A DNA stretch of 64,000 nucleotides from Sedimentisphaerales bacterium (GTDB taxonomy: Bacteria; Planctomycetota; Phycisphaerae; Sedimentisphaerales; UBA12454): assembly GCA_049518795.1 (NCBI GenBank), contig JBEKRK010000001.1:583506-647505 (forward strand). Reading direction: 5' to 3'. Position 1 is the stretch's first letter. Every line of letters begins with the position of its first letter. A program made the translations under genes and the position numbers. Shown here in pieces: positions 52,025 through 64,000 of this stretch. Below the pieces are notes generated by a model. That model saw only the letters and a program-made list of their open reading frames with translations. It did no database searches and was not told the origin of the DNA.

Positions 52025-52456
52025 ATCTGGCTGTTAGAAATAAGGATATGTAAGAATTGACCAATTGGCAAGCAGATTCTCGCGGCCTTACAATTCCAAA
52101 CAGGCTCTCAATAAACTGCCTATTCATCTAAAACAACTACAAGAAAATACTTGATTTCCCTACTTAAATTGCAATAATTGACTATGGAGAATCACAGCAA
52201 AATAGTCTTAGTTATTTGGTATATTGATCTTTTCATCACCCTCCTCCGAAGCCAGATTCTCTATATCTTAGAGGTCTGGCTTTCTTGATAAATTCTAATG
52301 TTAGTTTAGAAAACACAGGTATTTAAGGCAATTATCATCTATCAATTTGCAACTAATAAAAGACAATAAAAATCTTTAATCAATAATTTTTTTTAAAACA
52401 ATATTGTAATTTATTGTTTTTTGGCTACAATTTCGTATATTTTTAAAGGAAAAGAT

Positions 52457-53986
52457 ATGGCCGTAAAATTCTCCAAAGAAGTGCAATTATTAGGCGATAT
52501 GGCAAGGGCATTTGCCGAGTCACTCGACCTTGAGCTGACCCTCAAGGCCATCCTGAAATCTCTGGACACCCATGTCAAACTGCAAAAAGGGACTGTTACT
52601 TTACTCGACCCTGCAACAGAAACCATTAATATCAAAGTAGCTCACGGCCTGAGTGAAAAGTCAAAACAATTGGGCAGCTATAAAATTGGCGAAGGCATCA
52701 CCGGCACGGTCGTTCAAACAGGCAGGGAAATTGTCGTGCCGGATATTTCCAAAGACAGCAGATTCCTTCATAGAACACGTTCCAGAAAAGAAACACAGGG
52801 CAGACAAATTGCCTTTTACTGTGTGCCGATAAAACTCGAAGGCGCAACAATCGGTGCACTGAGCGTTGACAGGCAGGTTCAGAAAGGCGACGATGCAGAG
52901 GCATATCTAAGTCTTCTGAATATTATCGCGACAATGGTCGCACAGGCCGTAAAATTGAACAAGCTTGTCGAATCCGACAAAAGACAGCTCTCCGAAGAAA
53001 ATCTGAGGTTAAGACAGGAGCTAAAAGCACATTTCAATATAAACAATATGGTAGGCACAAGCAATGCAATGAAACAGGTTTATCGGCTTATTGAACAAGT
53101 GGCCGACAGTAATGCTACCGTGCTGATTCGAGGCGAAAGCGGCACAGGTAAAGATCTTGTTGCCCACGCGATACACTATAACAGCAGCAGAGCGAACAAA
53201 CCCTTTGTAAAAGTAAACTGCACCGCCCTGCCGGAAACCCTGCTCGAAAGTGAGCTTTTCGGCCACGAAAAAGGGTCTTTTACAGGCGCAACAGAAAGAA
53301 AAATTGGCAGATTTGAAAGAGCCAACGGCGGCACCATTTTCCTCGATGAGATAGGCGATTTTTCCATAAATCTCCAGATCAAGCTGCTGAGAATTATCCA
53401 GTTCAGAGAATTCGAACGGGTTGGCGGGACAGAAACCATAAAAGCAAATGTCCGAATCATCGTCGCTACGAATAAAAATCTTGAAGAGCAAATCAAGGAA
53501 AAACTCTTTAGAGAAGACCTTTATTACAGGATAAATGTTTTTCCGATTTACCTGCCGCCGCTGAGGGAGCGAAAAGACGATATTATGCTTCTGGCAGATT
53601 ATTTTCTCGAACAATTTTCAAGAGAAAATAACAAAAGAATTACACGCATTTCAACGCCGGCAATTGAAATGCTTACGAGCTATCACTGGCCCGGAAATGT
53701 CCGAGAGCTTGAAAACTGTATCGAACGGGCTGTTCTTCTATGTAATGACGAAGTCGTGCGTTCAGAACATCTGCCCCCATCATTGCAAATGATTAAAAAA
53801 AGTGATATGCCCTTAGGTCGGTCGCTTACCGAAATTATCGAAAACAAGGAAAAAGAAATCATTATCGATTCTCTTAAAAAACATAGCGGCCAGCAAAGAA
53901 AAGCAGCAAACGAGCTTGGTATTACGGAACGTATTCTCGGATACAAAATTAAAAAATACGGCATCTTTCCCAAAATGCTCTCGTAA
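52457..53986 (+). CDS. NifA-family sigma54-dependent activator (GAF-AAA+-Fis HTH)
   Basis: GAF (YKIGEGITG...[11 protein letters not shown]), [40 protein letters not shown] and C-terminal HTH. ATG at 52457 after AAGGA (track start 52421). Confidence 0.93.
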
Positions 53987-53994
53987 ATTTTAAA

Positions 53995-54036
53995 TACGAA
54001 AATGTCCACAAAAAACCATACTTATACATTATTGTA
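53995..54036. promoter_or_regulatory. Paired TACA-N4-TGTA boxes (candidate activator enhancer) upstream of the TorF operon
   Basis: TACGAAAATGTC (53995-54006) and TACATTATTGTA (54025-36), 30 bp apart. Confidence 0.65.
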
Positions 54037-54127
54037 TAAAATTAAAAAAGCGTTCATATCGTAGCCATCTCATCATAACATCTTCTTTTGCAAACATTTA
54101 TATCAAATTTATAAATTTTTAATTATC

Positions 54128-54143
54128 TGGCACGGATATTGCT
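54128..54143 (+). promoter_or_regulatory. Sigma54 (-24/-12) promoter
   Basis: TGGCAC-GGATA-TTGCT. Confidence 0.9.
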
Positions 54144-54214
54144 TTATATTATATGAGATTTATGATTTCTGTATTTAAATAAAGGATTTGTCATTTTTTT
54201 ACTGGAGGCAAAAA

Positions 54215-54997
54215 ATGAAAAAGTTCGTCATTGTATTTATGGGTTCTTTTATGATTTACTCAACTGTCCTGGCCGACGCCAATTCAGTCGTCCCGGACGA
54301 AGCAAAGGACAAAATCGCTTTCACCATTACCAGTGATTTTTACAGTAGGTATATATGGCGAGGTCAGGTGATTACTAATGGCGCTGTTTTTCAGCCGAGC
54401 ATCGGCGCCAGCTACAAGGGATGGACTGCCAATATCTGGGGTAATGTGGATATGACAGATTATCGCAATCAAAGCGGCGAATTTACCGAATACGACCTGA
54501 CACTCGATTACAGCAACAAACTCACCGAAAAAGTTGGCTATTCTATTGGAACGATTCATTATCACTTCCCGAGTTTCTCCTATACGGATACAACTGAAAT
54601 ATACTGGGGATTCAATTTTGACTTGCCGCTAAGTCCTGCCATTAAAGTATATCACGGGCTTGGTAATGAAAATGGAACTTATGTAAATTTCAGTATAGGA
54701 CATACAATCGAAAAAGTTATGACATTTACCGAAAACTGTTACTGTAATTTGCAATGGGGTGCATCGCTCGGCTGGGGTAACGGGACATATAATAGGGATT
54801 ATTGGGGCGTGAATGGGTCCCATCTGAATGATTTGGCATTTACCCTCGGTTTGCCTATATGTTTCCCGGGCGGATGGACTGTGAGTCCAAGCATTAATTA
54901 TGTAACGCTGGTTGATGGAGCGATTCGCAGCTCCGATGTTTATGCCAGGTCAAGCGACTATTTCTTTACAGGCATCCGCATCAGCAAAAGTTTTTAA
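54215..54997 (+). CDS. TorF-family putative porin (type commonly found next to glnK-amtB)
   Basis: Signal peptide; SDFYSRYIWRG, FQPSI, EYDLTLDY and terminal F. ATG at 54215 after GGAGG (track start 54188). Confidence 0.8.
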   Translation: MKKFVIVFMGSFMIYSTVLADANSVVPDEAKDKIAFTITSDFYSRYIWRGQVITNGAVFQPSIGASYKGWTANIWGNVDMTDYRNQSGEFTEYDLTLDYSNKLTEKVGYSIGTIHYHFPSFSYTDTTEIYWGFNFDLPLSPAIKVYHGLGNENGTYVNFSIGHTIEKVMTFTENCYCNLQWGASLGWGNGTYNRDYWGVNGSHLNDLAFTLGLPICFPGGWTVSPSINYVTLVDGAIRSSDVYARSSDYFFTGIRISKSF

Positions 54998-55064
54998 ATG
55001 TCTTAAACGAAAATTTGGTGAAAAAATCCAAACAAAGAAAAAATAAAAATTTGGAGAAATTATT

Positions 55065-56942
55065 ATGCCGTCTGAAAATAAAATAATCGAACCACAAATA
55101 AAGGCTACGTTAGGCCTGTTTGGCGCTACCGCAAACGCTATGGCACTGATTGCGCCCGGGGCATTCCTGTGGATTACTTATCAACTGCAAGCTGCTGCCA
55201 CATCTCCGAGCGGGGCATCGGTTTCAAGCGATATCTGGGCGGGAATCGTTGTTGCATTGGCTATCTGTTTCCTTACCGCCATTTCCTACTCGGAACTTGC
55301 AAAATTATATCCGCAAGCGGGATTTGCAAGCGTCACATATTTTGCAGAAAAAGCCTTTCTCGACAGCAAAGGTGTAAAAAGAGGAACGCCTACCTCTTTA
55401 GCCCGTATGGCGAAAATAGTTACAGGATGGGCCGCCCACCTTTTCTACTGGGTCTATCCGGGAGTTATGGTGGCTATGATGGCCAACCTTATCAGCTATC
55501 TCTACACAGCATTCACCGGACATACCTTAACAACGGTGATGCTGGTTGTGGTCAGCACTCTATTCGCGGGCATCATAGGATTCGTAGCCTATCGCGGTGT
55601 AACCGGCTCGACAAAGACCTCAATCTGGATTAACGTGATTCAGCTTGTTACGCTGGTTGTATTTACCGTTCTTGCAATCTGGTATCGCACTTCTAACCCT
55701 CAAGGTGCGACAAACTGGACATTCACCGGCGGCTGGGATGTAATCCGTCCGCATTCGCTCAACGGCATCCTGATTCAATCTACCCTTGCCATCCTGATAT
55801 TGGTTGGCTTTGAAAGCTGCACCGCCCTTGCCGCCGAGACAAAAGACCCAAAAACAACGATTCCCAAGGCCATCATTTTGTCCCTGGTGATTCAAGGATT
55901 GTTCGCGTATCTGCTGGAGTATTTCGGTGCCGGCTTTATGATTAACGATAAACTGGCCGGCACGGCCGCCGGACAACCGGTAACCGGAATGGCCGCCGCA
56001 GCCGCTTCAAGTGCACCTATCGGAGACCTTGCTCAGCTTATCGGCAACAGCATCGTGCCGGGACTTGGCTTTGGTTTGATGATAACTATGGCAATCACTG
56101 TGGCAATTGCCGTAATCGGCACAACCTTAAGCTGTATGAACACCGCTGTGCGGGTAACCTGCGGTATGGCGGAAGACCTTGAATTGCCGAAATACCTGAG
56201 TTTCATAAGCTCACACAGCACGCCTCATACGGCATTGTGGACGCTGGTAATCATTACTTCCATAATCGGCGCCATAGGCGTTCAATCCGTAGTAGGTCTT
56301 ACAGGCATCACGCTTGCCTCGAACTTCGGAACCTTTGTGCTCTACGGCCTAACCTGCGTGTGGACCATTATCGCTTTCAGGAAACGGCTTGACTTCAGCA
56401 TCTTCAAACACGGAATTATTCCGGTGCTGGGAGTAATTACCAACGTCATTATGCTTATAGCGATTATTTATCTGTATGCTATCGGAAACGCAGATTCGAA
56501 AAGAGAAGCAACGATTTGTTTCTATATCTGCGGCGGATGGGCCATTATGAGTTTCCTGTATGTCGCTGTCAGCACGGTGAGCAAAACTTATGATTTAAAG
56601 ATGATTTCAGTTGTCATTCGCCCCGAAAGACTCAACATCCTGACCGAGGTTCTTAAAGACGAAGAGCTTCTTATGGGAATGACTGTAACAAAAGTAAAAG
56701 GATTTGGCAGACAAAGAGGCCACATAGATTCGGACGACTCAAAGCCTGTATCCGATATGACATATTTTATTCCCAAAATGCGGGTTGACGTCCTGGTAAG
56801 GAGCTGGGATGTTCCGTATGCAATGGGTATTATGAGAGAAGTCTTATATACCGGCGAAGCCGGGGACGGAAAGATTTTTGTGGTTGACGCGTCAGAAGCA
56901 ATGCGAATACGCACTGGAGAAAAAGGCGTTGCCGCTATCTAA
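55065..56942 (+). CDS. APC-superfamily amino acid permease fused to a C-terminal P-II domain
   Basis: About 12 TM helices (ALIAPGA, GFESCTALAAETKDPKTTIPKA), then from about 56595 KMISVVIRPE...KGFGRQRG...PKMRVDV...TGEAGDGKIFV...MRIRTGE. Confidence 0.9.
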   Translation: MPSENKIIEPQIKATLGLFGATANAMALIAPGAFLWITYQLQAAATSPSGASVSSDIWAGIVVALAICFLTAISYSELAKLYPQAGFASVTYFAEKAFLDSKGVKRGTPTSLARMAKIVTGWAAHLFYWVYPGVMVAMMANLISYLYTAFTGHTLTTVMLVVVSTLFAGIIGFVAYRGVTGSTKTSIWINVIQLVTLVVFTVLAIWYRTSNPQGATNWTFTGGWDVIRPHSLNGILIQSTLAILILVGFESCTALAAETKDPKTTIPKAIILSLVIQGLFAYLLEYFGAGFMINDKLAGTAAGQPVTGMAAAAASSAPIGDLAQLIGNSIVPGLGFGLMITMAITVAIAVIGTTLSCMNTAVRVTCGMAEDLELPKYLSFISSHSTPHTALWTLVIITSIIGAIGVQSVVGLTGITLASNFGTFVLYGLTCVWTIIAFRKRLDFSIFKHGIIPVLGVITNVIMLIAIIYLYAIGNADSKREATICFYICGGWAIMSFLYVAVSTVSKTYDLKMISVVIRPERLNILTEVLKDEELLMGMTVTKVKGFGRQRGHIDSDDSKPVSDMTYFIPKMRVDVLVRSWDVPYAMGIMREVLYTGEAGDGKIFVVDASEAMRIRTGEKGVAAI

Positions 56943-56971
56943 ATCCGAAAGAATCGTGAAAGGAAATAAAA

Positions 56972-57313
56972 ATGAAAAAAATTGAAGCTATTGTTCGACC
57001 CGGCAAGGTCGCCAGTGTGTGTGCCGTTTTGGAAGAAATCGACTATCCCGGCCTTACAATCACCGAAGTTGAAGGACATGGAAAGCAAAAAGGTCTCGAA
57101 CAACAGGTGCGAGGCAAAACTTACAAAGTGGGTCTGCTTACCAAGGCAAGGATTGAAATAGTGGTCAAAGACAGCGATGTTGACAAGGTAATCAATGCCA
57201 TACGAGAAACAGCTTTCACCGGCAAGGTCGGCGATGGTAAGATTTTTGTTTATCCCGTTGAAAATGCGGTGAGGATACGCACCAATGAACGAAGCGAGGC
57301 AGCATTAGTATGA
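56972..57313 (+). CDS. P-II family nitrogen regulator (retains Tyr51)
   Basis: MKKIEAIVRP, GHGKQKG, RGKTY51, TGKVGDGKIFV and VRIRTNE. Confidence 0.95.
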   Translation: MKKIEAIVRPGKVASVCAVLEEIDYPGLTITEVEGHGKQKGLEQQVRGKTYKVGLLTKARIEIVVKDSDVDKVINAIRETAFTGKVGDGKIFVYPVENAVRIRTNERSEAALV

Positions 57314-57416
57314 CCAGCTCAGAACCGGCAGCATCAATACAAGAATAGCTTAAACTTATGGAATAAGATAACAAAACTACCGGATAACACAGATATAAAC
57401 AGTCGTCAGTATAGAC

Positions 57417-57476
57417 GGCACCACTTCCAAAAGTGCCTTGAGATCAGGGGCCCGATTTTTCGGGTCCCTGATTCTC
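57417..57476 (+). ncRNA. Candidate 3'-UTR sRNA / structured element, copy 1
   Basis: GGCAC-CACTTCCAAAA-GTGCC hairpin plus a roughly 15-bp hairpin; repeated at 61612-61671; first 12 nt are complementary to the amtB RBS regions. Confidence 0.6.
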
Positions 57477-57655
57477 TAATATAAATCTCAAAAATACATC
57501 AGACAAAAAACGCTAAATCAAAGCAAATCAAAACTGTTGCATTGCAGACAGGATTTTTGTATTATTACGGTTTTGAATAAACGTATAAAACAGGTGGTTT
57601 TGTTTTATGGGCAATCTTTGTCTATTCCCTGTATGTTCTCCGAAAAGAAAAAAGG

Positions 57656-59647
57656 ATGAAATCGGATTCTGATAGCAAATTAACTTTTACTGAAACAGTT
57701 ACCAGAAAAATATTTGGCGCTCCTCGCGACATTCAGGACCCTCGCATTTTCCACAAATTATCTCTTATCCCCCTGCTTGCCTGGATAGGATTAGGCGCAG
57801 ACGGACTTTCCTCGTCATCTTATGGCCCGGAAGAAGCGTTCAGAGCATTGGGTTCTCATGTGTATTTATCTTTATTTCTTGCCATAGCGACTGCCCTGAC
57901 CGTAGCGATAATTTCTTACGCATATTCAAGAATTATTGAGCATTTTCCGCACGGGGGCGGCGGCTATATAGTTGCAACCCACATGCTCGGTAAAAAAGCA
58001 GGCGTAGTCTCCGGATGCGCATTAATTGTCGATTATATATTGACTATTACCGTTTCAATAACCTCGTGCGTTGATGCATTGTTCAGCTATCTGCCGATGG
58101 AATTCCACAGGTTTAAGATTTTGACCGCATCCGGTTTAATTATATTGCTGATAATTTTTAATATCAGAGGGGTTAAAGAATCCATAATGATGCTTGCGCC
58201 CATCTTTATTACTTTCATAATCACACATATATTGATGCTCGGCTATGGCATATTAAGCCACACTGACAGGATAATGCCGGTCGTGAATAATTTTCATAGT
58301 AGTTTTGCCAGGGACATTTCCACAATAGGCGGTATGGGCATTTTTCTTCTCTTTTTGCGTGCCTATTCACTCGGCGGCGGAACATATACCGGAATAGAGG
58401 CTGTTTCCAACGGCCTGCAAATTATGAGAGAGCCGAAAGTGCAAACCGGCAAACGAACTATGTTGTATATGGCGACATCCCTCGCCCTGACAGCAGGAGG
58501 ACTTTTTCTATGTTACCTGATTTGGGAAGTTCGGCCTCTTTCTGGAAGAACACTTAATGCAATCCTTGCCGATAGCCTTTTCGCAAATTGGCGGCTGGGT
58601 CACTGGATAGCGTTTATAACTATTTTCTCAGAAGGTGCACTTCTTCTGGTTGCCGCCCAGACAGGATTTGTTGACGCCCCGCGTGTTATGGCAAATATGG
58701 CAGTTGATTCCTGGCTGCCGCACCGATTCGCGTCTTTTTCGGAACGTCTGACAATGCGCAACGGCGTTTTAATGATAGGAATATCAGCCATTGCCATACT
58801 GTTCTATACACACGGCTCGATATCAGCGCTTGTGGTTATGTATTCGATAAACGTATTTCTTACGTTCTCGCTTTCAGAGTTCGGAATGTCGCGGTTCTTT
58901 ATAAAAAACCACAGGACAGAGGCCAAATGGAAACAGCATCTTAGCGTTCACCTTACCGGCCTTATTCTCTGTTTGACAATTCTGGTAATAACAACCTTTG
59001 AAAAATTCAGCGAAGGTGGCTGGATGACGCTTGTTATAACGTCATTCCTGATAATGCTCTGCTACCTGATTAACAGCCATTATTCAAAGGTAAAAAACGA
59101 ATTAATGCGGCTGGACAAACTGCTTGCGAGAATGCCGATATCAGGTTCGCCTAATACCGAGCCGATTAACAAAGAAAATATGACCGCAATACAGCTTGTC
59201 AGCACATACAACGGTTTTGGGGTTCATACGCTGTTTACAATTATTCGTTCCTTTCCGGGGTTATATAAAAACTTTGTGTTTGTTTCTGTTGTCGTCATAG
59301 ACCAGGGCGCATTTAAAGGCAAAGAAGGATTAGAGGATTTGAAGAAATCCACGAAGGAATCTCTCAGGAAATACGTTGAACTTGCCCGGACACTCGGGTT
59401 CCCCGCCGAATACAGAATGGCGACTGGAACTGACCTTGTGGAAACGGCAACTGAATTGGTTAAGGAAGTCTCAGAGGAATTTAACAAATCCACGATTAAA
59501 TCCACAGTTTTTTCAGGACAGCTTTCTTTCCAGCTTGAGAAATCTTATCATAGACTGCTTCACAACGAGGCGGCATTTGCCATTCAGCGGCGGCTGCAAT
59601 GGAACGGCATCGCAAATGTTATATTGCCCATAAGACTGGAAATGTAA
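57656..59647 (+). CDS. APC-family permease (YdaO/KimA-like) with cytoplasmic C-terminal domain
   Basis: GADGLSSSSYGPEEAF, FPHGGGGYIVA, YTGIEAVSNG, QTGFVDAPRV and YSINVFLTFSLS. Confidence 0.8.
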   Translation: MKSDSDSKLTFTETVTRKIFGAPRDIQDPRIFHKLSLIPLLAWIGLGADGLSSSSYGPEEAFRALGSHVYLSLFLAIATALTVAIISYAYSRIIEHFPHGGGGYIVATHMLGKKAGVVSGCALIVDYILTITVSITSCVDALFSYLPMEFHRFKILTASGLIILLIIFNIRGVKESIMMLAPIFITFIITHILMLGYGILSHTDRIMPVVNNFHSSFARDISTIGGMGIFLLFLRAYSLGGGTYTGIEAVSNGLQIMREPKVQTGKRTMLYMATSLALTAGGLFLCYLIWEVRPLSGRTLNAILADSLFANWRLGHWIAFITIFSEGALLLVAAQTGFVDAPRVMANMAVDSWLPHRFASFSERLTMRNGVLMIGISAIAILFYTHGSISALVVMYSINVFLTFSLSEFGMSRFFIKNHRTEAKWKQHLSVHLTGLILCLTILVITTFEKFSEGGWMTLVITSFLIMLCYLINSHYSKVKNELMRLDKLLARMPISGSPNTEPINKENMTAIQLVSTYNGFGVHTLFTIIRSFPGLYKNFVFVSVVVIDQGAFKGKEGLEDLKKSTKESLRKYVELARTLGFPAEYRMATGTDLVETATELVKEVSEEFNKSTIKSTVFSGQLSFQLEKSYHRLLHNEAAFAIQRRLQWNGIANVILPIRLEM

Positions 59648-59689
59648 AAAATCAATTGTTTCAATTCATTTTTACATACCCAAAATAAA

Positions 59690-59730
59690 TACAAAAATGT
59701 ATATTTTAAAGCAATATATACAAAATTGTA
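59690..59730. promoter_or_regulatory. Paired TACA-N4-TGTA boxes upstream of amtB1
   Basis: TACAAAAATGTA (59690-701) and TACAAAATTGTA (59719-30). Confidence 0.72.
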
Positions 59731-59821
59731 AAATATTAATAAATAAATTTTTAAATTCTTTCCTTCCTTAACTTCCTTTAAAAACAACAGGTTATAACGA
59801 TTTTTTAAAAAATAAATAAAT

Positions 59822-59837
59822 TGGCACAACTATTGCA
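59822..59837 (+). promoter_or_regulatory. Sigma54 promoter for amtB1-glnK1
   Basis: TGGCAC-AACTA-TTGCA. Confidence 0.92.
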
Positions 59838-59902
59838 TATAACAACAATGAATAAATTACCAACGAAAACATTTGCATATAAATTGAAAGGAAGTGGTGC
59901 TA

Positions 59903-61228
59903 ATGAAGGTTAGTTTACACAAATTGATATTCTGTATAGTATTTCTGTCTTTCACAGCCAGTCTCTGTCTTGCAGCAGATTCACCCGCCATACCTAATAA
60001 AATAGACAGCGGCGATACTGCCTGGGTGCTTATCTCAACAGCTTTGGTTATGATAATGACGCCTGGGCTGGCATTCTTCTATGGCGGCCTTGTCAGGCGA
60101 AAAAATTATCTCAGCATTCTTATGCAATGTTTCATCGCTCTTGCGGCGTTAAGCATTCAATGGGTATTGATTGGTTATAGTCTATCATTTGCACCGTCAA
60201 ACGGATTCTGGGGCGGTTTTAAATGGTTCGGACTTAATGGAGTCGGATTCGAACCTTACGCCAGCTATAGCGCTACTATTCCGCACCAGGCATTTATGAT
60301 ATTCCAGGCTATGTTCGCAATAATCACGCCCGCCCTTATTATAGGTGCGTTCGCAGAACGAATGAAATTCTCGGCATTTCTGGTCTTTTTACTGCTGTGG
60401 GCGACCTTCGTTTATGACCCGATAGCTCATTGGGTTTGGGGCGTCGGAGGTTGGCTTAGGAATCTTGGAGTACTGGATTTCGCGGGCGGGACGGTGGTTC
60501 ATATAAATGCCGGTATCGCGGCATTAGTTACGGCGTTAATAATAGGCAAAAGGTCGTGCCACGATAAATACGCGGTTGCACCGCATAATCTGCCTTTCAG
60601 CGTTCTGGGGGCAGCGATGCTTTGGTTCGGCTGGTTCGGCTTCAACGCCGGTTCAGCTCTGGGCGCTAATGGTTTAGCTGTCAATGCCTTTGTCGTTACC
60701 AATACCGCGGCGGCAGCGGCTGCCCTGACTTGGGCAATAATCGACTGGATGCTAAACGGCAGTCCGACAATGCTCGGCACTATTTCCGGAGCGGTCGCAG
60801 GACTGGTAGCCATAACGCCTGCCGCAGGGTTTGTCGGTATAGGCGGCGCAATTGGAATTGGTGTAATTGTAAGTATATTGTGCTTCATTGCGGTCAGCTT
60901 TATAAAGCATAAATTCCATTACGACGATTCGCTTGATGCATTTGGAGTTCACGGCATAGGAGGTATGTGGGGTGCAATCGCAACCGGAATATTCGCTACA
61001 AAAGCAGTAAATTCTGCCAGCGCTAATGGTTTGCTCGCAGGCAATCCAAAACAGCTGCTCATCCAACTGGCGGCAACAGCTGCCACTGTTATTTACAGCT
61101 TAATAGCGACATATATCATCTATAAACTCGTTGATATAATAATCGGAGTTAGAGTAACCGATAACGATGAAGCTGTAGGCCTTGACCTGACTCAACATAA
61201 CGAACGTGCCTATACAATGCTCGAATAA
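59903..61228 (+). CDS. amtB: Ammonium transporter 1
   Basis: [48 protein letters not shown] and DAFGVHG. ATG at 59903 (track start GTG 59894). Confidence 0.97.
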   Translation: MKVSLHKLIFCIVFLSFTASLCLAADSPAIPNKIDSGDTAWVLISTALVMIMTPGLAFFYGGLVRRKNYLSILMQCFIALAALSIQWVLIGYSLSFAPSNGFWGGFKWFGLNGVGFEPYASYSATIPHQAFMIFQAMFAIITPALIIGAFAERMKFSAFLVFLLLWATFVYDPIAHWVWGVGGWLRNLGVLDFAGGTVVHINAGIAALVTALIIGKRSCHDKYAVAPHNLPFSVLGAAMLWFGWFGFNAGSALGANGLAVNAFVVTNTAAAAAALTWAIIDWMLNGSPTMLGTISGAVAGLVAITPAAGFVGIGGAIGIGVIVSILCFIAVSFIKHKFHYDDSLDAFGVHGIGGMWGAIATGIFATKAVNSASANGLLAGNPKQLLIQLAATAATVIYSLIATYIIYKLVDIIIGVRVTDNDEAVGLDLTQHNERAYTMLE

Positions 61229-61240
61229 AGGAAACCGAAT

Positions 61241-61582
61241 ATGAAACTGATAATCGCAATAATTCAGCCTCACAGGCTCGAACAAGTAAAAGAAGAGCTT
61301 TATAAAGAAGAAGTCAACCTCATTACCGTAAGCGAGGTTCTCGGCCACGGCAGACAAAAAGGTGTAACCGAAATTTACCGCGGCTCAAAAGAAACAGGTA
61401 ACCTGCTGCGGAAAGTCCGCCTCGAAATAGCGGTAAATGAGAACTTCGTCGAACGGACAATAAAGGCAATAATCGCCGGGGCGAAAACCGGCAATACCGG
61501 CGATGGAAAAATATTCGTTGTGGATCTTCCTGAATGTATCAGAATAAGGACGGAAGAACGCGGCGGTGAAGCAATAGGATAA
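61241..61582 (+). CDS. glnK: P-II protein GlnK1 (Ser49, no Tyr51)
   Basis: Directly follows amtB; [16 protein letters not shown] and [11 protein letters not shown]. Confidence 0.93.
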
Positions 61583-61611
61583 TACCGAACTAAACTGTTG
61601 TTCGTGTAAAA

Positions 61612-61671
61612 GGCACCACTTCCAAAAGTGCCGAGAGATTAGGGAGCCGATTTTTCGTGCCCCTAATTCTC
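61612..61671 (+). ncRNA. Candidate 3'-UTR sRNA / structured element, copy 2
   Basis: First 21 nt identical to copy 1; second hairpin conserved with a compensatory C-G to T-A pair. Confidence 0.6.
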
Positions 61672-61688
61672 TAAAATGTCGCTAAAAA

Positions 61689-61730
61689 TACAAAATTGTA
61701 ATTATCATACCTCTAAATTACAAAAATGTA
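61689..61730. promoter_or_regulatory. Paired TACA-N4-TGTA boxes upstream of amtB2
   Basis: TACAAAATTGTA (61689-700) and TACAAAAATGTA (61719-30). Confidence 0.72.
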
Positions 61731-61808
61731 GTAAGTTGTAGATTGTAAAATAAAACACTAATCACATAAGTATCTTAGTAACCATCACTTATAGTTAAAT
61801 ACGCAGGT

Positions 61809-61824
61809 TGGCATAACTATTGCA
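61809..61824 (+). promoter_or_regulatory. Sigma54 promoter for amtB2-glnK2
   Basis: TGGCAT-AACTA-TTGCA. Confidence 0.88.
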
Positions 61825-61894
61825 CCTAATAATTAAATAAATCTGAATTACTAACTAATACATTAGCATAAAAATAAGAAAGGAAGTGGTGCCA

Positions 61895-63217
61895 ATGAAG
61901 GTTAGTGTTCGCAAACTGGTATTTTGCGCGGTGTTGGTCTGCGCCGCCGTAAGCCTGTGCCCTGCCGAAGGAATATCAACAAACTCCAAAATAGACGGCG
62001 CCGATACCGCATGGGTGCTTATATCGGCTGCACTGGTTATGCTGATGACGCCGGGGCTGGCGTTTTTCTACGGCGGTCTTGTCAGGCGAAAAAATTATCT
62101 CAGCATCCTTATGCAATGCTTCATAGCCTTGGCCGCTCTTAGCATTCAGTGGATAATATTCGGATACAGTCTGTCTTTTTCTCCGGGTAATGGATTTATA
62201 GGCGGCTTACAATGGTTCGGACTTAGAGGAGTCGGACTCGAACCTTATGCTGTTTATAGCGCAACTATTCCGCATCAGGCGTTTATGATTTTCCAGGCAA
62301 TGTTCGCTATAATTACACCTGCACTTATTATTGGTGCGTTCGCAGAGCGGATGAAATTCTCGGCATATCTGATTTTTACGCTGCTTTGGGCGACATTTAT
62401 ATATGACCCGATAGCACACTGGGTCTGGGGCAGCGGCGGATGGCTTAAAAATATGGGTATTATGGATTTTGCAGGCGGCACGGTGGTTCATATAAACGCC
62501 GGCATTGCAGCGTTGGTTACCGCATTAGTAATAGGAAAAAGGTCCTGCTACAATAAATACGCGATTGCGCCGCATAATCTGCCGTTCAGTGTGTTGGGAG
62601 CGGCATTACTGTGGTTCGGCTGGTTTGGCTTTAACGCAGGCAGCGCATTAGCTGCAAACGGCATAGCGGTAAACGCATTTGTTGTTACAAATACCGCAGG
62701 AGCTGCAGCAGCATTAACATGGGCATTGATAGACTGGAAACTTAACGGCAATCCAACAATGCTTGGAACCATATCAGGAGCAATAGCGGGACTTGCGGCA
62801 ATTACGCCAGCGGCAGGATTTGTCGGGGTGGGTGCGGCATTGGTAATCGGTATTGCAGCCAGTATCTTTTGTTTCATTGCCGTCAGTTTTGTGAAACGCA
62901 CATTTCATTACGACGATTCGCTGGACGCATTCGGCGTTCACGGCATAAGCGGTTTCTGGGGAACTTTAGCAACAGGACTGTTCGCATCCAAGGCTATAAA
63001 CCCGGCCGGCGCCAACGGGCTGCTTGCGGGAAACAGCAGGCAATTTTTCATACAGCTTGTCGCGGCAGCAGCAACGGTAGCTTATGCGTTCATTGGCACG
63101 TTCATCATCTACAAAATTATCGATGCGGTCATCGGTGTCAGAGCTACTGAAGAGGAAGAAGCAATCGGGCTTGACCTGACTGAACACAATGAGCGGGCTT
63201 ATACGATGTTAGAGTAA
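61895..63217 (+). CDS. amtB: Ammonium transporter 2
   Basis: Paralog of 59903-61228 with the same motifs. ATG at 61895 (track start GTG 61886). Confidence 0.97.
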
Positions 63218-63234
63218 AAGAAAGGAAATCTGTT

Positions 63235-63576
63235 ATGAAACTGATTATAGCCATAATTCAGCCTCACAGGCTCGAACAAGTAAAAGAAGAGCTTTATAAG
63301 GAAGAAGTGAACCTCATTACTGTAAGTGAGGTTCTCGGCCACGGCAGACAAAAAGGCGTTACAGAGGTCTATCGCGGTATGAGAGAAACAGGCAACCTGC
63401 TGCGGAAAATCCGGCTCGAAATAGCGGTAAATGAGAACTACGTTGAACGGACAATAAAGGCAATAATCGCCGGGGCGAAAACGGGTAATACCGGCGATGG
63501 GAAAATATTCGTTGTTGACCTTCCTGAATGTATCAGAATCAGGACGGAAGAACGCGGCGGTGAAGCTATAGGTTGA
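63235..63576 (+). CDS. glnK: P-II protein GlnK2 (Met49, no Tyr51)
   Basis: Differs from GlnK1 at 5 of 113 residues. Confidence 0.93.
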
Positions 63577-63627
63577 AAAACTCAAAACTAACTAAATTGT
63601 ATTTTTTGCGGACAATTCCGTAATAAA

Positions 63628-63669
63628 TACAATAATGTAGATTTATATGTAAATATCTACAAAAATGTA
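63628..63669. promoter_or_regulatory. Paired TACA-N4-TGTA boxes upstream of glnA
   Basis: TACAATAATGTA (63628-39) and TACAAAAATGTA (63658-69). Confidence 0.72.
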
Positions 63670-63758
63670 TGAACGAAAATTTTTATATTGACTTTGTATG
63701 TATTCGTAATATCTTCTACAATAAGAACCTATGAAAATTTATATATCAAAAAGCTGAT

Positions 63759-63774
63759 TGGTATAGTTATTGCA
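63759..63774 (+). promoter_or_regulatory. Sigma54 promoter for glnA
   Basis: TGGTAT-AGTTA-TTGCA. Confidence 0.8.
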
Positions 63775-63852: not shown

Positions 63853-64000
63853 ATGACCCCCAAAGAATTTTTTGATTTTTGCAAGAAAAACAATGCCGGG
63901 ATGGTCGATTTGAAATTCGTTGACCTTCTGGGCACCTGGCAGCATTGCACATTCCCGGTGGAATTCCTGGACGAAAAGGCTTTAAAGGAAGGTCTCGGTT
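63853..64000 (+). CDS. glnA: Glutamine synthetase type I, 5' part (runs off window end)
   Basis: Hand translation MTPKEFFDFCKKNNAGMVDLKFVDLLGTWQHCTFPVEFLDEKALKEGLG matches the GSI N-terminus (VDLKF.D..G.WQH). Confidence 0.92.
   Translation, partial: MTPKEFFDFCKKNNAGMVDLKFVDLLGTWQHCTFPVEFLDEKALKEGLG

Follow-up and report, generated by a model that had tools for sequence, protein, structure and literature searches.

The window analysed here is a stretch of 64,000 nucleotides (nt) from the genome of a Sedimentisphaerales bacterium (Planctomycetota) and corresponds to C1:583506-647505 of a 2.9-Mb assembly (8 contigs, guanine-cytosine (GC) content 43.5%, completeness 96.7%). The nearest relatives of this genome are metagenome-assembled Phycisphaerae/Sedimentisphaerales from peat, fen, lake sediment and groundwater. 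The last 12 kb of the window carry the gene of a putative sigma54 activator followed by genes for permeases, ammonium transporters (Amt), P-II proteins and a type I glutamine synthetase (glnA). Apart from the second permease gene (APC663), these are organised in four units, each preceded by a -24/-12 promoter and by a pair of palindromes of the form TACA-N4-TGTA, hereafter called boxes (Table 1). The activator, its boxes and the regulon that they are predicted to define are the subject of this analysis.

Table 1. Activator gene, promoters, boxes and target genes of the locus (window coordinates)
Feature	Position	Strand	Description
Activator gene	52457-53986	+	509 amino acids; GAF, Sigma54_activat (AAA+, GSFTGA loop) and Fis-type helix-turn-helix (HTH_8) domains; Pfam
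Putative autoregulatory box 1	52397-52408	.	AACAATATTGTA; one mismatch
Putative autoregulatory box 2	52426-52437	.	TACAATTTCGTA; one mismatch; exact TACAATTTTGTA in many relatives
Predicted sigma70-like promoter	52404-52431	+	TTGTAA-N16-TACAAT, consensus scan; overlaps both autoregulatory boxes
Promoter 1 distal box	53995-54006	.	TACGAAAATGTC; degenerate, two mismatches
Promoter 1 proximal box	54025-54036	.	TACATTATTGTA; exact
Sigma54 promoter 1	54128-54143	+	TGGCACGGATATTGCT
Promoter 2 box pair	59690-59730	.	TACAAAAATGTA and TACAAAATTGTA; spacing 29 bp
Sigma54 promoter 2	59822-59837	+	TGGCACAACTATTGCA
Promoter 3 box pair	61689-61730	.	TACAAAATTGTA and TACAAAAATGTA; spacing 30 bp
Sigma54 promoter 3	61809-61824	+	TGGCATAACTATTGCA
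Promoter 4 box pair	63628-63669	.	TACAATAATGTA and TACAAAAATGTA; spacing 30 bp; conserved block in alignment of glnA upstream regions
Sigma54 promoter 4	63759-63774	+	TGGTATAGTTATTGCA; conserved in alignment of glnA upstream regions
Operon 1	54215-57313	+	porin-like protein, APC-PII permease, free P-II; Pfam and NCBIfam
Porin-like protein, operon 1	54215-54997	+	260 amino acids; weak TorF-porin similarity
APC permease with C-terminal P-II domain, operon 1	55065-56942	+	Pfam AA_permease and P-II
Free P-II, operon 1	56972-57313	+	
Operon 2	59894-61582	+	Amt (59894-61228), GlnK-type P-II (61241-61582); Pfam
Operon 3	61886-63576	+	second Amt (61886-63217), GlnK-type P-II (63235-63576); Pfam
glnA	63853-65265 (window ends at 64000)	+	type I glutamine synthetase, 470 amino acids
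Second APC-type permease (APC663)	57656-59647		

All four -24/-12 promoters reported by the first-pass annotation are found where it placed them and represent 4 of the 20 genome-wide matches to TGGYAY-N5-TTGCW. The seven exact boxes of the window (at 54025, 59690, 59719, 61689, 61719, 63628 and 63658) all lie upstream of these promoters. The same annotation had described two boxes 29-30 base pairs (bp) apart at each promoter. This is exact for promoters 2, 3 and 4, whereas promoter 1, whose pair begins 8 bp 3' of the activator stop codon, combines one exact box with a partner carrying two mismatches 30 bp away; the position of this partner is occupied by an exact box in three related loci (L021, L022 and L032). 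The second box is separated from the TGG of the -24 element by 92, 92, 79 and 90 nt at promoters 1 to 4, a slightly wider range than the 80-90 nt originally given. Neither of the known site types accounts for these regions, as had been stated: the NifA-type sequence TGT-N10-ACA is absent from four of the five regions scanned and its single match overlaps a promoter 3 box (genome background 0.22 per kb), while NtrC-type sites do not explain the promoters.

The degenerate pair that had been noticed in front of the activator gene is also present, with a spacing of 29 bp. No -24/-12 element is found upstream of this gene. A pair 29-30 bp apart occupies the upstream region in nearly every ortholog. 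An alignment of 14 activator upstream regions, 43% identical on average, is invariant only at the ATG, at the ACA..TGTA of box 1 and at the ACA..T.GT of box 2. The box pair is therefore the only conserved sequence upstream of the gene, in agreement with the autoregulation proposed earlier. Since it overlaps a sigma70-like promoter and is not associated with a sigma54 promoter, this predicted autoregulation is most likely negative.

The activator exhibits a Sigma54_activat domain (PF00158, E = 9e-74) whose GSFTGA loop is a variant listed as functional (PMC4641369), and its HTH_8 domain covers residues 462-501. The gene for sigma54 itself, rpoN, is present (384 bits against a cut-off of 277, C2:496740-498176). 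Among equivalog profiles, the protein marginally exceeds the NifA cut-off (TIGR01817, 530.7 against 528.85, profile positions 3-438 of 534) and remains far from that of NtrC (TIGR01818, 348.8 against 558.6). Its best solved-structure match is NifA (9qq6_C, residues 6-504 aligned) and its GAF domain matches Aquifex Nlh1 (E = 1e-27). These matches place the activator in the NifA family of enhancer-binding proteins. Its recognition helix nevertheless differs from the TPRQIAYRIQT of NifA, and no nifH above the cut-off was found in this 96.7%-complete genome (best match 37.8 bits against 394).

Three other sigma54 activators are encoded in the genome. Two include a receiver domain and the third lacks a sensor domain. 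The scores of all three fall well short of the NtrC cut-off, leaving the genome without an NtrC equivalog. One of the response-regulator activators (C1:765404-766747) has NtrC as its best NCBIfam match (405 bits against 558.6). Within C1:765404-767442, it is co-oriented with a kinase-like open reading frame (ORF) of 232 amino acids, and an ORF of 707 amino acids lies upstream. The second lies at C2:28720-30108. GlnD was not found in the genome. The earlier suggestion that the GAF protein replaces NtrBC is thus plausible, as the three other activators fall below the NtrC cut-off and GlnD is absent, with the two response-regulator activators to be reckoned with.

The concentration of boxes at this locus contrasts with their distribution in the rest of the genome. 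The 2.9 Mb contain 29 exact boxes, fewer than the approximately 70 that base composition predicts, and this 12-kb stretch alone accounts for 7 of them. Exact pairs at 29 or 30 bp occur three times, all at this locus, where about 0.003 would be expected genome-wide. With up to one mismatch per box, five pairs are found at spacings of 29 and 30 bp, against zero to two at each other spacing from 12 to 120 bp. AT-rich DNA (GC content of at most 30%) outside the locus contains 8 exact boxes in 294 kb, all of them unpaired, against 7 in 2 kb here (approximately 130-fold enrichment); paired boxes are thus not equally common in AT-rich intergenic DNA at large. The reversed box pattern, taken as a control, gave no match in the 41 related genomes and the 201 genomes of the phylum sample described below.

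Outside the locus, the genome-wide scan for paired boxes and sigma54 sites revealed no further exact pair and no box adjoining a sigma54 site. A pair at C3:250096 (30 bp, one mismatch per box) has no sigma54 site nearby and was treated as a chance occurrence. Of the remaining exact boxes, five have AT-rich spacers; every candidate partner at 29-31 bp from them carries at least four mismatches, and all five lack a suitably placed TGG-N9-TGC site and nitrogen genes. Because the other boxes lack a partner, a usable sigma54 site and nitrogen genes, the box-pair system is confined to this locus in the source genome, which makes the regulon self-contained, as the first-pass annotation had described it.

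Conservation was assessed in loci L021-L050 and L101-L115, in the more distant L116-L123 and in the window. Orthologs of the activator (about 66-94% identity) are present in 28 of 41 related genomes. With an ortholog defined by at least 67% identity, exact pairs are found in 23 of these 28, compared with 1 of the 13 genomes that carry no ortholog (Fisher p = 8.6e-6). The boxes therefore track the activator gene, which supports the original proposal that the adjacent GAF-AAA+ protein activates ammonium uptake and glnA. Box pairs upstream of sigma54 promoters were identified in 48 distinct regions; 40 of these have a spacing of 30 bp, five have 29 bp and three have 31 bp. Gaps between the second box and TGG form a main cluster at 88-94 nt, and a further group at 78-81 nt is shorter by one helical turn. 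Outlying gaps are 102 and 124 nt (single cases, one and three turns longer) and 49-55 nt (three distant cases). Almost every base of the N4 spacer is A or T, a preference that was not built into the search pattern. A C on the 5' side and a G on the 3' side of the box are also favoured, so that the ideal form is CTACAWWWWTGTAG.

The order activator gene, boxes, sigma54 promoter is kept in most orthologous loci. In the relatives, the genes behind the box-pair promoters are always a porin-like gene with amt and glnK, amt-glnK, glnA, or an ORF of 702 amino acids. The latter, of 699-702 amino acids and preceded by the same box pair and sigma54 promoter, is found in L101-L107, L110, L111 and L114 and is absent from the source genome; as read from its sequence, it probably encodes a type III glutamine synthetase. 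When seven glnA upstream regions were aligned, conserved blocks appeared at the boxes and at the -24/-12 element. The same seven promoters share a third box-like element (GACAATTCCGTA, 63610-63621 in the window, 18 bp upstream of the distal glnA box) and two blocks, TTATATTGAATTT and TGTAATATCTT, located between the boxes and the promoter. These two blocks could be sites for bending proteins.

Beyond these relatives, 200 further genomes of the phylum were sampled and exact pairs were found in two, G060 and G190. G060 belongs to another family and carries a GAF activator of 47% identity with a box pair upstream of its gene. Other pairs precede the sigma54 promoters of amt-glnK and of an ORF of 840 amino acids, which, judging from its N-terminus only, may be a NirB-like nitrite reductase. 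In the corresponding locus of this distant planctomycete of 33% GC (L121, G060:C6, 2377-5046), the box pair lies about 40-55 nt upstream of the sigma54 promoters. The exact pair of G190 was taken as chance: this genome has no GAF activator or homolog, and there are no nitrogen genes nearby.

Full-length activator homologs (44-58% identity) are more widespread and occur in 33 of the 201 genomes of the phylum sample, source genome counted (about one in six). In planctomycetes of 64-66% GC with homologs of 53-55% identity, the layout activator gene, boxes, sigma54 promoter, amt-glnK or glnA is kept and the boxes take the form (C)TAC-N6-GTA(G). In a subfamily of 50-54% identity with the recognition helix TTARIIRYKV, the boxes are TACA-N4-TGTC and precede gltB and an operon composed of a porin-like gene, amt, P-II and glnA. 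This suggests that recognition helix and site may change together. One of these loci (L116, G020:C10, 5560-5700) contains a second GAF activator (51% identical, TTARIIRYKV) divergent from a gltB-like ORF; in the intergenic region, AACAAATATGTC and TACAAGATTGTC form a box pair with a 29-bp spacing and are accompanied by a sigma54 promoter. Glutamate synthase thus appears, from this arrangement, to be under its own paralogous regulator in some relatives. An ORF of 860 amino acids (MTAWASTGFKGLDK...) lies directly 3' of the 50-54% paralog in L116 (7473-10055) and L119 (2899-5478). Phylogenetic footprinting therefore finds the boxes conserved before sigma54 promoters of nitrogen-assimilation operons throughout the order, with variant forms across the phylum, and the activator-box system is predicted to have a phylum-wide reach.

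From these observations we infer that the GAF protein is the binder of the boxes. In the reading that we favour, with a probability of about 0.75, this NifA-lineage activator would be a one-component functional replacement of NtrC that has acquired a new DNA specificity and acts through the paired boxes. The attribution of an NtrC-like role follows from the enhancer architecture: two dimer sites about three helical turns apart, phased, more than 100 bp upstream of the start, and reused over the activator's own sigma70 promoter. Activator dimers would bind the two palindromes of 12-14 bp, with 30 bp from centre to centre and about 90 nt between the end of the second and the -24 element. The bound dimers would nucleate an AAA+ hexamer, which would loop to the sigma54 holoenzyme and open four promoters, those of the porin-like protein/APC-PII permease/P-II operon, of the two amt-glnK operons and of glnA. 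Binding over the -35 and -10 elements of the sigma70-like promoter would repress the activator gene, as does NtrC at glnAp1 and glnLp. The GAF domain probably restrains the ATPase until a low-nitrogen signal is received. This signal may be 2-oxoglutarate or the regulon's own P-II proteins, three of which are free and one permease-fused.

A broader proposition extends this to the phylum: Planctomycetota would run ammonium assimilation by a one-component system in which a NifA-lineage activator of new DNA specificity, acting through CTACA-N4-TGTAG boxes that are paired at 30 bp and in helical phase with the -24 element, replaces NtrB-NtrC-GlnD outright, reads 2-oxoglutarate or P-II directly and represses its own sigma70 promoter. 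Taken as a whole, we lean only slightly towards it.

Several observations weigh against the favoured reading. The -35-like and -10-like hexamers of the activator gene coincide with the autoregulatory boxes, and the conservation seen there could in part be that of a promoter. Promoter conservation alone does not explain these boxes, however, because neither sigma70 hexamer includes the ACA of box 1 or the TGT of box 2, both of which are invariant. The ACA and TGT cores of the half-sites are 7 bp apart, centre to centre, which is short for a Fis-type helix-turn-helix dimer unless the flanks contribute. The additional conserved blocks at the glnA promoter indicate that further factors may take part there. 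The link between helix and motif variants comes from two loci only, and the sequence was found in peat and lake DNA metagenomes only and in no RNA run. Finally, of the two response-regulator activators, the one adjacent to a small histidine kinase is a conceivable binder of the boxes.

This last point leads to the most serious alternative, in which the boxes are real enhancers bound by one of the two response-regulator activators and the GAF gene is a further target, in the way that NtrC controls nifLA in Klebsiella. Both candidates are receiver-AAA+-helix-turn-helix proteins; the C1 protein combines its preference for the NtrC profile with an adjoining kinase-like ORF, and several sigma54 activators are encoded in each of the 41 relatives. 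However, with no sigma54 promoter before the GAF activator gene, an activator bound at that site could only repress. This alternative would also leave the GAF protein without a target site, although its gene always adjoins these promoters. Moreover, box pairs occur mainly in genomes that have the GAF ortholog, and no boxes are found near the response-regulator genes. We consider this alternative unlikely.

The boxes might instead be operators of an unrelated nitrogen repressor or sites of an architectural protein, the activator binding some other, unrecognised sequence. The third box-like element and the further blocks at glnA are consistent with such an arrangement, and operators are typically found where the boxes of the activator gene lie, over a sigma70-like promoter. 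The geometry at the sigma54 promoters (about 90 nt upstream of -24, 30-bp pairing, offsets by whole turns) fits an enhancer rather than an operator, no other motif is common to all four promoters, and the boxes co-occur with the activator gene. Operators of this kind appear less probable still. That the palindromes are functionless products of AT-rich intergenic DNA, to which both the very AT-rich intergenic regions and the AT-rich box itself might point, is already refuted by the counts given above (unpaired boxes elsewhere, three pairs against about 0.003, no reversed match in 242 genomes) and by a position and spacing kept in 48 promoter regions, those of 64% GC genomes included.

Several neighbouring features deserve mention. 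The APC permease-P-II fusion of operon 1 is in frame, is conserved in L025 and L109 and forms a predicted transcription unit with a free P-II, governed by promoter 1. Two nearly identical double-hairpin elements lie 3' of the P-II genes in operon 1 (57410-57480) and operon 2 (61605-61670). They are composed of GGCACCACTTCCAAAAGTGCC and then a GC-rich stem around GATTTTTCG, and look like shared terminators or 3'-untranslated elements. APC663, with neither boxes nor a sigma54 site, looks to be outside the regulon. Downstream of glnA, a terminator and a sigma70-like promoter are followed by two long ORFs (1453 and 473 amino acids), which from their size and opening residues are probably gltB and gltD. 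Preceded by this terminator and promoter and without boxes, they were not retained as regulon members.

Sediments, peat and wastewater harbour abundant Planctomycetota, a phylum of importance to nitrogen cycling. No nitrogen regulator or site described for this phylum was found in the literature. The locus offers a concrete, testable regulon composed of one activator, one site of 12-14 bp and four or five promoters in a fixed geometry, with site variants that follow the divergence of the activator protein. There is also a consequence for annotation: with a score just above the NifA cut-off, proteins of this type would be named "nif-specific activator NifA" in genomes that are free of nitrogenase, and this could mislead metagenomic surveys of diazotrophy.

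Sigma54-dependent nitrogen control in Proteobacteria relies on NtrBC and GlnD. In enterobacteria, NtrC (NR-I), whose N-terminal receiver domain is phosphorylated by NtrB, activates glnAp2 and amtB-glnK from paired sites, and its binding at glnAp1 and glnLp represses these promoters. By sequence, the system described here resembles that of NtrC in its predicted targets (glnA and amt-glnK), in its predicted sigma54-dependent promoters, in its two strong palindromic sites, which are separated by some three helical turns and located over 100 bp upstream, and in activator sites that overlap a sigma70-type promoter and would give negative autoregulation. In contrast to NtrC, the activator has no receiver domain and no NtrB partner, a GAF sensor taking their place; the site is TACAWWWWTGTA rather than TGCACC-N5-GGTGCA; and GlnD is absent. 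A 2025 survey of sigma54 across phyla (PMC12316311) treats glutamine synthetase control as mainly proteobacterial; it mentions Planctomycetota and gives no activator site for nitrogen genes in this phylum. Literature searches, both for the motif itself and for sigma54 control of nitrogen genes in planctomycetes, returned no description of this site or regulon.

With NifA, the activator shares the GAF-AAA+-helix-turn-helix architecture as well as its best family and solved-structure matches. It differs in its predicted targets, which are genes of ammonium uptake and assimilation rather than nif, in a genome without nitrogenase; in promoters that TGT-N10-ACA does not explain; and in a divergent recognition helix, the profile match ending at position 438 of 534. 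The Fis-type helix-turn-helix of the NifA lineage has apparently been retargeted from TGT-N10-ACA to ACA-N4-TGT. A sigma54 activator with upstream sites is of a known kind, and what would be new is a NifA-lineage activator in an NtrC-like job through a new site. The ATPase is gated by the GAF domain in NifA as well as in the Nlh proteins of Aquifex; the stimulus for this domain in NifA is 2-oxoglutarate or P-II. Nlh1 and Nlh2 of Aquifex aeolicus (PDB 4g3k and 4g3w) are a close parallel, being GAF-regulated sigma54 activators of the NifA lineage without nif context. NifA-like regulators outside a nif context are also described in Nitrospira, beside nxr (PMC6606698). To our knowledge, neither Nlh1 and Nlh2 nor the Nitrospira regulators have a defined regulon or binding motif. 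The present case differs from both groups in that a regulon and a motif are predicted, with conservation throughout the phylum.

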